The translations under genes were made by a program, and so were the position numbers. Positions 1 through 4,954 of a stretch of DNA of 64,000 nucleotides are shown here, one piece after another. The notes under the pieces were generated by a model. The model ran no database searches. It saw only the letters and a program-made list of their open reading frames with translations, and was not told the DNA's origin. This DNA is from Acidobacteriota bacterium. GTDB lineage: Bacteria > Acidobacteriota > Holophagae > Holophagales > Holophagaceae. The stretch covers positions 9,465-73,464 of the forward strand of contig JAJYRN010000013.1 of NCBI GenBank assembly GCA_021794095.1, given 5' to 3'. Position 1 is the first letter of the stretch. Each line of letters begins with the position of its first letter.

Positions 1-1354
1 TGGTGCCGAGGAGCAGCGCCGCCTCGCCCAGCAGGTCGCCCGCATGGGAACCCACCACCGTGAGGCCCACCACCCGGTCGGTGCCCTTCACCACCCGGGC
101 CTGGACGAAGCCTTCCTCCCCTTCCAACACGCCCCGGTCCAGGTCGGAGAAGGCCACCTGCAGGGCCTCGGTGTCGAGTCCCTGGGCGTGGGCCATGGCT
201 TCCGTCAGGCCCACCTGGCCGATCTCCGGCTGCGTGTAGGTGCACCAGGGCACCACCTGGTCGGCGACTTTGCCCCGGCCGAAGAAGAAGCCGTTCCGGA
301 GCACCATCCGGGCCTGGGCATCGGCCGTGTGGGTGAACTGGGGCCCGCCGGCGGCGTCGCCGGCCACGTAGACCCTCGGATTCGTAGTCCGGAGGCGCGG
401 ATCCAGCACGAGGCGCTTCCCGTCCATCCGGATGCCGGCGGAGTCGAGGCCCAGGCCCTCCAGGTTGAGGGCGCGGCCCGCCGCCACCAGGATGAGATCT
501 CCCCGGACCTCCCTGGGTCCGCCGGGGCCGTCGAGGGCCAGCACCCGGTCCTCGCCGTCACGGAAGGCCCGGAGGATCCGCGTCTGTTCATGAACCTCGA
601 TGGCGTCCCGCCGGAAGGCCGCCCGCAGGGCCACGCGCGCCAGCGTTTCATCTCTTGGCGCGAGCTGGCCCTGATCCACCAGGGTGACCTCCGATCCGAA
701 CTGCCGGAACGCCTGGGCCAGCTCGCAGCCGATGGGGCCGCCCCCGATGACCAGGAACCGACGCGGGAGGACCGTGAGCGAGAACACCGTCTCGTGGGTG
801 TGGAAGCCGGCCTCGGGAAGCCCCGGGATCGGCGGGACAAAGGCCCGTGCGCCCGTGGCGATGAGGGCCTTGCGGAATCGGAGCCGCTGCCCTCTCACCT
901 CCACCCGGTCGGGCCCCTCGAAGTGGCCCGGACCCAGGAACACGTCCACGCCCAGGCCCTGGAACCGCTCCGCGGAATCGTGCTGGGCCAAGGCGGCCCG
1001 CTTTTCCCGCATGCGCTCCATGAGGGCCGGGAAGTCTGCGGACACCTCCCCCCGGAGCCCCAGATCCGAGGCGGCGCGCCACTGGCGCAGGCGGGCCGAG
1101 GCGGCCAGCAGGGCCTTGCTGGGGACGCAGCCCGCGTTGAGGCAGTCGCCCCCCAGCAGGGCCTTCTCCACGAGGGCCACCTTGGCGCCGAGTCCCGCCG
1201 CTCCCGCCGCGGCCACCAGCCCCGCGGGGCCACCGCCCAGGACGACCAGATCGTACGTGGGCTGCGGCGTGGGATTCACCCAGTCCTGGGGCGCGACCCG
1301 CGCCCTCAGGGCCAGGTCGTGGGGGCTGTCGAGGCGGAGTCCATCAAGGCTCAT
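1..1354 (-). CDS. FAD-dependent pyridine nucleotide-disulfide oxidoreductase (MerA/LpdA-like); 3' end runs off the window
   Basis: Not in the ORF track. Manual translation from ATG 1354: MSLDGLRL...YDLVVLGGGPAGLVAAAGAAGLGAKVALVEKALLGGDCLNAGCVPSK (GxGxxG plus CxxxxC redox motif). At the window edge it reads VVGSHAGDLLGE. The start overlaps the end of the DedA gene. Confidence 0.9.
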   Translation of the reverse strand, partial: MSLDGLRLDSPHDLALRARVAPQDWVNPTPQPTYDLVVLGGGPAGLVAAAGAAGLGAKVALVEKALLGGDCLNAGCVPSKALLAASARLRQWRAASDLGLRGEVSADFPALMERMREKRAALAQHDSAERFQGLGVDVFLGPGHFEGPDRVEVRGQRLRFRKALIATGARAFVPPIPGLPEAGFHTHETVFSLTVLPRRFLVIGGGPIGCELAQAFRQFGSEVTLVDQGQLAPRDETLARVALRAAFRRDAIEVHEQTRILRAFRDGEDRVLALDGPGGPREVRGDLILVAAGRALNLEGLGLDSAGIRMDGKRLVLDPRLRTTNPRVYVAGDAAGGPQFTHTADAQARMVLRNGFFFGRGKVADQVVPWCTYTQPEIGQVGLTEAMAHAQGLDTEALQVAFSDLDRGVLEGEEGFVQARVVKGTDRVVGLTVVGSHAGDLLGEAALLLGT

Positions 1355-2057
1355 GGGGCAGCTCCAGGCGGGGTTCGGTTCCGGTTTCGGGAAGGGCCTG
1401 GGCCAGCGCCCGGCGGGCGATGTGGGTCACGCGCAGGGTGACGGCGAGGGTGGCGGCGAGCCCCAGGCCGAGCAGCCAGGCGGGAAGACCCGGGGTCGAG
1501 GTGGCGCCGGTGGCCACGCCCGCCGCGGCCCCCGCGCTGACGTAGAGGACGGTGGCGGGGAGCATGGCCAGCCAGGAGGCCAGCACGTAGTCGCCCAGCG
1601 GGATGTCCGTGAGGCCCAGGGCGTAGTTCAGGAGGCTGAAGGGGAACACGGGCGACAGCCGCAGCAGGGCCACCAGCCGCCAGCCCTCCCGGCCGATCGC
1701 CCGGTCCAGGGCTTGGAACCGTCCCCGGCCTTCGATCCGCGCCCGCACCCGGTCCCGCAGGAGGGTGCGACCGAGCAGGAAGGCCAGGCTGGCCCCCAGC
1801 ACGCTGGCGGGGGAGACCAGCAGGGTTCCCCGAACCGGGCCATAGATCCAGCCGGCGGCCAGGGTGAGGGGCAGGGCCGGCAGGCCGAGCACCGTGGCCG
1901 CCACATAGATCGCCGCGAACACCGCCACCCCCAGCCAGCCGGCCCCGTGGACCCAGGTTGTGAGGCCCTGGGTCCATGCGCCCAGGGGCGCCACGCGGCT
2001 GGCCAGCCCCAGGAGGAGCACGACCCCCAGCAGGGCCAGGAGCTTCACGCGCGCCAT
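1344..2057 (-). CDS. DedA/TVP38/TMEM64 (SNARE-associated) membrane protein
   Basis: Hydrophobic ORF with PALPLTLAAGWIYG, ALLRLSPVFPFSLLNYALG and YVLASWLAMLP motifs. Confidence 0.9.
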   Translation of the reverse strand: MARVKLLALLGVVLLLGLASRVAPLGAWTQGLTTWVHGAGWLGVAVFAAIYVAATVLGLPALPLTLAAGWIYGPVRGTLLVSPASVLGASLAFLLGRTLLRDRVRARIEGRGRFQALDRAIGREGWRLVALLRLSPVFPFSLLNYALGLTDIPLGDYVLASWLAMLPATVLYVSAGAAAGVATGATSTPGLPAWLLGLGLAATLAVTLRVTHIARRALAQALPETGTEPRLELPHEP

Positions 2058-2091
2058 GCGAAGCCCGCCCACAGGAAGATCCCGAAGCGGC

Positions 2092-3066
2092 TCATACCAG
2101 GCTCCCCCCGCAGCTCGAGCCGCACCCGGCCGTGCAGCCGAAGCAATGGCGGCCCGTGGCGATCCGCGCCTGGGCGAGGTCGTCGAAGCGCGCGATGGAC
2201 CCGAGATCCGGAGCCTGGTCCGCGGGCAGGTCGAGCATCTGGTTGAAGTCGCAGTCGTAGATCCGGCCGTCGTAGCCGACGCTCACCAGGTTCCGGCACA
2301 TGACGTGCGCCACCGCGGCGGGATTGAACGAGCCTTCGAGGAGGGCCCAGTAGGCGTCCGCCTTGCCCAGCCGGTGGAGCAGCTCGGTGAAGCGCTTGAT
2401 GGGCATGTTCGTGACCGTCAGCAGCCGGTTGAAGACGAGGCCAAAGTCCTCGCCCAGACGCGCGCGGTAGTCCGCTTCGAGGGCCGCCTGCGGAGGCGGC
2501 AGGGAGGGCCCGAGGGGATTGAACACCAGGTCCAGCTCCAGCCCGGAGCCGGGCTGTCCGTAGCCGAGGGCATTCAAGGTCCGCAGGCCCTGGAGGCTCA
2601 GGTCATAGACGCCCTTCCCCCGCTGGCGTTCCACGTTCTCCCGCGAGTAGCACGGCAGGGAGGCCACCACATGCACCTGGTGGTCGCGCAGGAAGGCGGC
2701 AAGGTCCTCCTGCCCCTCCACGAAGAGGCAGGTGAGGTTGCAGCGGTCGAGAACCTCTAGGCCCAGGGCACGGGCCCCGGTCACCAGGGGACGGAACACC
2801 TCGTGCAGTTCCGGGGCCCCGCCGGTGAGATCCACGGCCCGGACCTCCGGGGAGGCCGCCAGAAGCGCCAGGATCCGATCCGCCGTCGCCCGGCTCATGC
2901 GTTCCGTGCGGTGGGGACCGGCCTCGACATGGCAGTGCTGGCAGGCCTGGTTGCAGTACCGGCCGAGGTTGATCTGGACGGTGGTGACCTCCGCGCGCCG
3001 GAGCACGGGCAGGCCGGCGGAGGCCAGACGATCGTCGAAGCCGGAAGGGGCAAGGGTCTCGGTCAT
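2092..3066 (-). CDS. arsS: Arsenosugar biosynthesis radical SAM protein, ArsS family (TIGR04167-type, Cys-rich C-terminus)
   Basis: CxxxCxxC motif (YCNQACQHCHV), DLTGGAPEL, ASLPCY, YDCDFNQML and C-terminal HCFGCTAGCGSSCGG. ATG at 3066. Confidence 0.88.
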   Translation of the reverse strand: MTETLAPSGFDDRLASAGLPVLRRAEVTTVQINLGRYCNQACQHCHVEAGPHRTERMSRATADRILALLAASPEVRAVDLTGGAPELHEVFRPLVTGARALGLEVLDRCNLTCLFVEGQEDLAAFLRDHQVHVVASLPCYSRENVERQRGKGVYDLSLQGLRTLNALGYGQPGSGLELDLVFNPLGPSLPPPQAALEADYRARLGEDFGLVFNRLLTVTNMPIKRFTELLHRLGKADAYWALLEGSFNPAAVAHVMCRNLVSVGYDGRIYDCDFNQMLDLPADQAPDLGSIARFDDLAQARIATGRHCFGCTAGCGSSCGGSLV

Positions 3067-3076
3067 GGGGCGCGCC

Positions 3077-4225: not shown

Positions 4226-4265
4226 GCCCATCTCCTGGGAATGGACATGGGGTGAAGCTGAGCAG

Positions 4266-4282
4266 TTTCCTGTTACAGGAAA
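4266..4282. promoter_or_regulatory. 17-bp perfect inverted repeat in the divergent arsM/transferase intergenic region (candidate operator)
   Basis: TTTCCTGT-T-ACAGGAAA. Confidence 0.45.
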
Positions 4283-4318
4283 TTCGCGCCGAGCATCCCA
4301 GTCAGAAGGGGGGACGCC

Positions 4319-4954
4319 ATGCCTTTGGACGCCTGGGTCGTCGTGTTCGCCAAGGCGCCGGTGGCGGGCCGCGTGAAGACCCGGCTGGCGGCGGAGGTCG
4401 GCCCCGAGATGGCCCTGCGGGTGTACCAGCGGATGGCGGAGCCGCTCTGGCGCGCGCTGCTGGCCTCCCGCGCCGAGCTGGGCTACGGCCTCTGTCTCGC
4501 CTACGACCCTCCCGAGGCAGCGGCCTCGATGAAGGCCTGGCTTCCCGGGGCGGATGCCTACCTGCCCCAGCGTCCGGGCAACCTGGGCGAGCGCCTGGCG
4601 GCCGCGCTGCGGTGGAGCCTGGATCAGGGGACAGGTCGTGTCACGGTCATCGGCACCGACTGCCCTGGCTTCACCCCGGAACACCTGCGGCAGGGCTTCC
4701 AGGCTTGTGATGCGCACCCGTTCGTCCTGGGGCCCGCCGCGGATGGCGGATTCTACGCCCTCACGCTGACGCCGGACGCGCGGGGCCTTCTGGATGCGCT
4801 CCCCGGGATCCCCTGGAGCAGTCCGGATACCGCTTCAAGCCTTCTGGCAGCGGCAGAGGCCCTGGGGCTCAAGGGGGCCTCGCTGCCTGAACTCCGCGAC
4901 CTGGACACCCTGGCGGATCTGACCTTCCACCGGAGGGCCTTCGGCTGGGGCTAG
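4319..4954 (+). CDS. TIGR04282-family (DUF2064/CofC-like) transferase associated with the rSAM/arsenosugar system
   Basis: VFAKAPVAGRVKTRLA, Q..GNLGERL, VIGTDCP, LGPAADGGFY, IPWSS and LRDLDT motifs. Confidence 0.88.
   Translation: MPLDAWVVVFAKAPVAGRVKTRLAAEVGPEMALRVYQRMAEPLWRALLASRAELGYGLCLAYDPPEAAASMKAWLPGADAYLPQRPGNLGERLAAALRWSLDQGTGRVTVIGTDCPGFTPEHLRQGFQACDAHPFVLGPAADGGFYALTLTPDARGLLDALPGIPWSSPDTASSLLAAAEALGLKGASLPELRDLDTLADLTFHRRAFGWG

Follow-up and report, generated by a model that had tools for sequence, protein, structure and literature searches.

A probable ArsS-type organoarsenical-biosynthesis cassette in an insertion beside a tRNA-Arg gene of an Acidobacteriota genome

What is made by a gene cluster in which an arsM-like and an arsS-like gene are followed by genes for a membrane protein and a flavoprotein reductase? 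The question is raised by the left end of a stretch of 64,000 nucleotides (nt) from an Acidobacteriota bacterium of the Holophagaceae (contig JAJYRN010000013.1), hereafter called the window (G000:C11:9465-73464), which belongs to a genome of 2.99 megabases in 28 contigs with 67.2% GC. An earlier interpretation of the letters alone (the sequence-only reading) listed five genes, arsM-like, arsS-like, dedA, a MerA/LpdA-like gene and a divergent TIGR04282 gene, and proposed that they make an organoarsenical. The locus is probably an organoarsenical-biosynthesis cassette of the ArsS ('arsenosugar') type, carried in a 13.8-kilobase (kb) insertion beside tRNA-Arg(CCT). That the organism produces arsenosugars is a prediction from homology.

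The five genes are present as first described, and family scans, ENA gene calls and measured gaps and overlaps agree on their strands, coordinates and tight coupling (Table 1). The arsM-like and arsS genes are separated by 10 nt and arsS and dedA by 34 nt, dedA overlaps the reductase gene by 11 nt, and the reductase gene overlaps by 10 nt its neighbour outside the window; ATG is the start codon of each of these genes. The reductase gene crosses the left window edge, with 451 of 500 amino acids (aa; residues 1-451) encoded inside and 148 nt lying outside. Its neighbour is the GT2 (TIGR04283) gene that the sequence-only reading had advised looking for to the left, and with it the profile searches for TIGR04167, TIGR04282 and TIGR04283 each gave a match above the curated cut-off. 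Since this gene was found, the cassette counts seven genes: arsM-like, arsS, dedA, reductase, GT2, HPP protein and the divergent TIGR04282 gene. The HPP family assignment is a lead, based on a weak Pfam match and a language-model match with a score of 0.97. Because the DNA is GC-rich (70% GC), the mechanical list of open reading frames (ORFs) contains many decoys. Those at the arsM position (3300-4136) and the dedA position (1351-1977) have no family match, and the true genes lie in other frames (3077-4225 and 1344-2057), on which the independent ENA gene calls and family scans agree.

The radical S-adenosylmethionine (SAM) protein belongs to the ArsS family. It scores 418 bits against TIGR04167, an equivalog model constructed around the Synechocystis enzyme (cut-off 300), with a match spanning positions 2-303 of 303, and carries DUF3641 (PF12345, 172 bits). 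In an alignment of the window protein with 80 homologues from many phyla, C38, C42 and C45 of the CX3CX2C motif, as well as C257, C272, C308, C311 and C319, are invariant (81/81 sequences), and the tail has the motif HCxGCTAGxGSSCxG. Identity is 57-58% to cyanobacterial members (L049, L072) and reaches 62% at best among the 80 ArsS genes of other phyla. The sequence-only reading had named a position outside ArsS as the result that would speak against it; the score and the invariant cysteines place the protein inside. ArsS of Synechocystis adenosylates dimethylarsenite, DMAs(III), to 5'-deoxy-5'-dimethylarsinoyl-adenosine (hereafter DDMAA), as summarized in later accounts (Xue et al., 2019, via bioRxiv 10.1101/2022.09.23.509062; reviewed in PMC13598754), and full family membership suggests that the window ArsS would do the same.

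For the methyltransferase, the label 'arsM-like' stands as far as the arsenic-binding cysteines and the SAM motif are concerned; none of the curated ArsM cut-offs is reached, and the protein is not of the cyanobacterial arsenosugar type. The best-matching model is NF040538 (arsinothricin ArsM; 342 bits, cut-off 500), followed by NF008823 (arsenite methyltransferase ArsM; 192 bits, cut-off 263) and NF038099 (arsenosugar-type ArsM; 136 bits, cut-off 400). The protein aligns to the CmArsM structures 4FS8 and 4KW7 (E 4e-33) with an insertion of about 35 aa, and keeps all four As(III)-binding cysteines. Together with 10 ArsS-adjacent homologues from Planctomycetota, Acidobacteriota, Verrucomicrobiota, an anammox bacterium and others it forms one clade (49-59% identity), in which the 35-40-aa insertion and a C-terminal CC are shared and NF040538 is the best model for all members. 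In this 11-member clade C31, C55, C182, C234 and the terminal CC are invariant or nearly so, and the SAM-binding motif around D70-G76 is conserved (LDLGSGxGK in most members). The conserved residues suggest that the enzyme methylates trivalent arsenic. By its profile scores the clade is nearest to arsinothricin-type ArsM: BgArsM of Burkholderia gladioli (PMC8552651) has cysteines 30/54/181/233 in 378 aa, against 31/55/182/234 in 382 aa here. The cassette is nevertheless not an arsinothricin cluster, because ArsL was not found in a whole-genome search with NF040542 (best 42 bits, cut-off 450) and the radical SAM enzyme is ArsS, whose tail is not RCCLKC.

The cassette is set apart from arsenic resistance in this genome. 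A canonical arsR-arsM-acr3-arsC operon, with an arsC of the LMW-PTP-like type, is located on another contig (G000:C20:60085-62756, all minus strand), and its ArsM passes NF008823 (303 bits, cut-off 263), so that the genome has two ArsM-type paralogues. A family-level scan confirmed that arsR, acr3, arsB and arsC are missing from the window; matches to the ArsR helix-turn-helix domain, acr3 and arsC-like genes are on other contigs, and ArsB was not found in the genome. Such a separate resistance operon fits a dedicated biosynthetic cassette.

The two remaining enzymes of presumed sugar chemistry are full family members. The TIGR04282 protein scores 157 bits (cut-off 134), matches PF09837 and is related to PDB 3CGX (E 8e-23), and the GT2 protein scores 224 bits against TIGR04283 (cut-off 182), with the acidic GT-A motifs H82/D84, G142/D143 and E166/D167 conserved in 31 sequences. 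Alignments with relatives revealed no conserved cysteines in GT2, TIGR04282 or DedA, and binding of substrate arsenic by protein thiols is therefore unlikely in these three.

The reductase had been called MerA/LpdA-like, which is right for the flavoprotein disulfide reductase fold and the redox pair and wrong for the mechanism. It scores 587 bits over its full length against NF004991 (FAD-containing oxidoreductase), narrowly under the cut-off of 620; within the phylum, the scores of relatives adjoining ArsS or GT2 are 620-860 bits. Its scores to MerA (TIGR02053, 315 bits, cut-off 454) and LpdA (TIGR01350, 292 bits, cut-off 409) are below threshold, and its PDB matches to MerA and LpdA structures are equally strong (E about 1e-64 to 1e-66). 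All 29 relatives keep the CxxxxC redox pair C71/C76, and at least 95% of them have H463, Y465 and P466. In the alignment Y465 stands where LpdA has its catalytic His (HPYPTLGE in the reductase, HAHPTLSE in LpdA), the Glu being kept. MerA has a tyrosine at the position matching this His. No cysteine is found beyond residue 371, so that there is no MerA-type C-terminal Cys pair, and no metal-binding (HMA) domain was reported in the Pfam scan. The protein thus shares its fold, its CxxxxC and its binding sites for FAD and NAD(P)H with both MerA and LpdA, but lacks the C-terminal Cys pair and the metal-binding N-domain of the former and has Tyr for the catalytic His of the latter; cut-offs and active-site residues rule out both identities. 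It ends in a basic amphipathic tail. An NF004991-family reductase elsewhere (G239:C154:3888-5384, 800 bits) has one in-frame TGA and may be either a broken gene or a form with selenocysteine, a selenoprotein.

At 14 of 22 DedA-bearing loci, among them loci of Thiolinea, Binatia, Rhodospirillales, Pseudomonas and Burkholderiales-like genomes, a homologue of the window DedA (36-50% identity) and the reductase form one fused ORF of 659-747 aa. Because the two are one polypeptide in most other lineages, DedA and reductase are treated here as one putative membrane-bound unit. DedA joined to PF07992/PF02852 is the commonest fusion of the COG0398 DedA proteins, which are putative phospholipid scramblases (Todor et al., 2023, PMC10127716), and the window DedA is assigned to the COG0398/TVP38 subfamily through this fusion rather than by a COG model. 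In the literature searched, no paper connected ArsS or arsenosugars with DedA or with this reductase.

Gene neighbourhoods were compared at 80 ArsS loci of other phyla, of which 41 have at least 6 kb on both flanks. Among these 41, the DedA/reductase pair is present at 16, GT2 or TIGR04282 at 18 and an ArsM, of long or ordinary type, at 13; 10 have none of these partners. All five partners occur together at 2 of the 80 loci, and the window cassette is for this reason among the most complete copies. Clustering of the cassette genes is far beyond chance. At two Burkholderiales-like ArsS loci (L057, L085) DUF547, DUF3047 and a second Pyr_redox_2 oxidoreductase are recurrent neighbours, which the window does not have.

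Presence of the four main families was counted in 151 Acidobacteriota genomes, with the reductase scored at 580 bits or more; related genomes are not independent, and these co-occurrence counts and those below are descriptive, not statistics. ArsS was found in 33 genomes, the reductase in 43, TIGR04283 in 50 and TIGR04282 in 52. The statement that TIGR04282 travels with ArsS is borne out by 30 of the 33 ArsS genomes (ArsS only 3, TIGR04282 only 22). Reductase and GT2 are found together in 40 genomes (reductase only 3, GT2 only 10), ArsS and reductase in 20 (ArsS only 13, reductase only 23), and ArsS and GT2 in 22 (ArsS only 11, GT2 only 28). In a second sample, 121 genomes of a Burkholderiales-like order, 44 have both ArsS and GT2, none ArsS only and 2 GT2 only, and of the 29 genomes with a reductase at least 27 carry ArsS; the 29 is a lower bound, since the E-value threshold cut a score cluster at 503-525 bits, and cannot be used to show absence. 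The samples include three unpublished genomes, G049 with all four families, G024 with GT2 and TIGR04282 and G179 with ArsS, reductase and GT2, and dropping them shifts each affected count by one. We read ArsS, reductase, GT2 and TIGR04282 as one co-inherited system, in which DedA and the reductase go with the GT2 step and not with ArsM or ArsS. The sequence-only reading had suggested that the reductase and DedA could provide As(V)/As(III) cycling and membrane handling. The idea of such cycling for ArsM and ArsS is weakened by the distribution: it is not indicated because the reductase tracks GT2 more tightly than ArsS and because the DedA-reductase-GT2 trio also stands alone. It is still chemically reasonable, since air oxidizes trivalent methylarsenicals and enzymes do not accept the pentavalent forms as substrates (PMC8552651).

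Four steps are proposed for the pathway. The four-cysteine ArsM-like enzyme would methylate trivalent arsenic, and ArsS would cleave SAM reductively and transfer the 5'-deoxyadenosyl group onto dimethylarsenite, giving DDMAA. TIGR04282, with its nucleotidyltransferase-like fold, and GT2 may then turn the ribose part into a glycoside, as gene context suggests; a pentavalent arsinoyl substrate would fit both proteins because they have no conserved cysteines. The DedA-reductase unit might finally work with GT2, the substrate being probably a product or acceptor associated with the membrane; this step is speculative. On what follows DDMAA, the literature consulted goes no further than an adenine that 'can then be removed' and a ribose that can be derivatized.

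Several observations weigh against assigning the whole cassette to arsenic. The chemistry of ArsS is known solely from the cyanobacterial enzyme and is ascribed to the window organism by homology, and the names 'arsenosugar biosynthesis glycosyltransferase' of TIGR04282 and TIGR04283 derive from gene context and not from assays; for TIGR04283 this automatic name is given to many genomes without detected ArsS, ArsS not being found in 28 of the 50 TIGR04283-bearing Acidobacteriota genomes. Reductase and GT2 occur without ArsS in 22 of the 151 genomes, and in G136, G015 and G076 a compact DedA-reductase-GT2 trio stands alone, its nearest radical SAM match more than 50 kb off. Because of such genomes and lone trios the accessory genes may not be arsenic-specific. 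The one substitute radical SAM protein that was found is encoded in G020, where no ArsS was found: one frame (L097:2051-4402, minus strand) encodes radical SAM/SPASM and then an ArsM-like methyltransferase, and adjoins TIGR04282, GT2 and a DedA::reductase fusion. Homologues of this radical SAM/SPASM::ArsM fusion occur in only 3 of the 151 genomes, which rules it out as the explanation of ArsS-less modules. The trio could be a membrane module that is unrelated to arsenic and serves, for instance, to make a glycolipid or a small-molecule glycoside; ArsS, ArsM and TIGR04282 would be merely co-located with it or grafted onto it, and DedA and reductase would have no arsenic role. The much tighter reductase-GT2 than ArsS-reductase association in Acidobacteriota, the ArsS-less genomes, the three lone trios and the absence of conserved cysteines from GT2, DedA and TIGR04282 all agree with such a module. 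We consider it unlikely, however, as genomes of the Burkholderiales-like order that have GT2 or the reductase nearly always have ArsS too, the trio genes are translationally coupled with arsS at this locus, and the 'ArsS-less' G020 has its radical SAM::ArsM fusion beside the module, so that other substitutes may exist.

The methyltransferase, which is under every ArsM cut-off and nearest to the arsinothricin type, makes both its substrate and the order of steps uncertain, and methylation and adenosylation may follow each other differently from the cyanobacterial scheme. If the order were reversed as in arsinothricin, ArsS would adenosylate As(III) held by its cysteine-rich tail, the ArsM-like enzyme would methylate afterwards, and the ArsM of contig C20 would serve resistance only. 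NF040538 as best model for the methyltransferase and its 10 clade members, the length and cysteine spacing common to it and BgArsM, the second, canonical ArsM in the genome, the invariant five-cysteine C-terminal region of ArsS, reminiscent of the As(III)-binding tail of ArsL, and the fact that BgArsM methylates the radical SAM product and not arsenite (PMC8552651) would all suit this order. It is nonetheless a minority option in our judgement, for the sole studied ArsS uses DMAs(III), the NF040538 score is far under its cut-off, and 10 other ArsS loci have an ordinary short ArsM, hence ArsS does not need the long clade. The arsenic-based reading has also to be compared with one in which the target of the cassette is a different metalloid or chalcogen (selenium, antimony, tellurium). 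The Tyr-for-His exchange of the reductase resembles metal-reducing MerA, and TIGR04167 includes selenoproteins, as its NCBIfam name '(seleno)protein' tells. Links to selenium exist for ArsM-type enzymes and for DedA, in the case of DedA through a paper on selenite resistance that is cited in PMC10127716. The four arsenic-binding cysteines of ArsM are all kept, however, the biochemistry of the family is solely with arsenic, and Cys occupies every conserved tail position in the window ArsS and its 80 homologues, which makes another element very improbable.

Organoarsenical biosynthesis of the ArsS type thus remains the preferred reading, and the cassette was horizontally acquired by one strain. 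Its insertion has tRNA-Arg(CCT) at the left edge (G000:C11:7476-7551, about 1.9 kb left of the window). None of ArsS, reductase, TIGR04283 and TIGR04282 turned up in 11 sampled genomes, six from the same genus, three from the same family and two from the same class. In G115, a complete genome of the same genus, ThiF-TatD, the tRNA and the homologue of a deaminase gene (window 11879-12286) are contiguous; in G000, TatD/tRNA and the deaminase gene are about 13.8 kb apart. The distance from the tRNA to the deaminase gene is about 0.06-0.4 kb in G115 but about 1.5 kb for G052 and about 42 kb for G036, and the site is a variable spot in the genus. The insertion is a mosaic: the 6.8-kb cassette has 71.3% GC (96.6th percentile of same-size windows) and a GC at third codon positions of 0.86-0.92, and the other half of the insertion has 65.2% GC. 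The cassette GC is merely supportive of transfer and no proof of it, since TatD and ThiF, which are conserved neighbours, have an equally high GC content. No donor lineage can be named, the best matches being 49-62% identical and scattered over several phyla, and no integrase gene was identified among the scanned ORFs of the insertion. A supposed dispersed repeat at its left edge, with many 75-110-nt matches in relatives, was rejected, as tRNA-Arg(CCT) forms its core. The two edges also resemble each other, more weakly, over about 45 nt with about 70% likeness (L004 ~7585-7640 and window ~11800-11860). Farther left, the region G000:C11:1-2977 (L004 3-1211 and 1607-2977) holds a transposase/integrase-core (rve) gene at the contig start and, a few kb left of the cassette, a gene for a 456-aa FGE-sulfatase-domain protein.

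Table 1. Genes and intervals of the cassette and of the rest of the insertion. Positions are those of the window unless a contig is given.
Feature	Position	Strand or arrangement	Remarks
HPP-type polytopic membrane protein	C11:7640-8632	operon gene after GT2; outside window	326-330 aa
GT2 TIGR04283	G000:C11:8636-9325	operon gene after reductase; directly left of window	
Flavoprotein reductase (class-I, FAD/NAD(P)H)	1-1354 (G000:C11:9316-10818)	-	500 aa; Pfam Pyr_redox_2, Pyr_redox, Pyr_redox_dim
DedA / TVP38-type (VTT domain) membrane protein	1344-2057	-	237 aa; PF09335 VTT_dom 97.6 bits
ArsS, radical SAM + DUF3641	2092-3066	-	324 aa
ArsM-like SAM methyltransferase, 'long' ArsS-associated clade	3077-4225	-	382 aa
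Divergent intergenic region	4226-4318	no strand	93 nt, between arsM-like and TIGR04282 genes
TIGR04282 / DUF2064, nucleotide-diphospho-sugar-transferase fold	4319-4954	+	211 aa
HD_5 (HD-GYP-like)	4977-5840	insertion remainder	Pfam
zf-HC2 anti-sigma ORF	5901-6425	insertion remainder	Pfam; real start probably further downstream
ECF sigma	6173-6790	insertion remainder	Pfam
HAD	7687-8379	insertion remainder	Pfam
TetR	8383-9114	insertion remainder	Pfam
CMD/AhpD-like	9074-9820	insertion remainder	Pfam
YceI	10394-10963	insertion remainder	Pfam
AhpC/TSA	10988-11803	insertion remainder	Pfam

The remainder of the insertion (4977-11879) is given as context, and membership in the pathway is not implied. 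At least eight other loci (L010, L019, L047, L057, L061, L068, L077 and L085) have an ECF sigma factor within a few kb of ArsS, in some cases together with a zf-HC2 anti-sigma factor; at several of them it is directly upstream or divergent, which hints at ECF-type regulation of the cassette. The divergent promoter region between the arsM-like and TIGR04282 genes contains a perfect 8-1-8 palindrome, TTTCCTGT-T-ACAGGAAA, at 4266-4282, and a second, 12-nt inverted repeat at 4219-4247 spans the arsM-like start codon. Both are candidate operator or hairpin sites. The TetR gene of the same insertion is 4 kb from the palindrome.

The steps of arsenosugar and arsenolipid formation past DDMAA have no assigned enzymes, and the cassette holds every recurrent candidate, TIGR04282, TIGR04283, DedA and reductase, in one small operon. 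With a full ArsS and a dedicated methyltransferase, it is a convenient unit for heterologous expression. We tentatively propose, as an idea more doubtful than probable, that the DedA-flavoprotein pair is a membrane-tethered reductase or lipid-flipping unit working with TIGR04283. It would either supply the missing late arsenosugar or arsenolipid steps, such as reducing a pentavalent organoarsenical and flipping an arsenosugar lipid, or constitute a glycoconjugate pathway that is older and independent of arsenic, with ArsS, ArsM and TIGR04282 grafted onto it.

Cassettes of this type are already known; added here are the full gene list, the horizontal acquisition, the methyltransferase clade, the Tyr-for-His exchange and the tie between reductase and GT2. 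The NCBIfam context set of TIGR04167, TIGR04282 and TIGR04283 is adjacent and above cut-off at this locus, which automatic annotation would name accordingly, but the set lacks DedA, the flavoprotein reductase, the long ArsM clade and the HPP protein, all present in the cassette. The COG0398 DedA proteins fused to a pyridine nucleotide-disulfide oxidoreductase (PMC10127716) have the same two domains, which in the window are encoded by split, overlapping genes; that study gives neither a function for the fusion nor a link to ArsS or TIGR04283, whereas the GT2 link and the Tyr-for-His exchange were observed here. In arsQML of Burkholderia gladioli (PMC8552651; bioRxiv 10.1101/2024.02.01.577332) a radical SAM enzyme makes the C-As bond, as predicted for the window, but ArsL transfers a 3-amino-3-carboxypropyl group and its counterpart ArsS 5'-deoxyadenosyl. 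Adjacent, co-oriented arsM-type and arsS genes are found also in Synechocystis sp. PCC 6803, according to the later accounts of that work (Xue et al., 2019, via bioRxiv 10.1101/2022.09.23.509062; PMC13598754). The window cassette differs from this pair in its methyltransferase, which is not of the cyanobacterial type (NF038099, 136 against 400 bits), and in its five further coupled genes.

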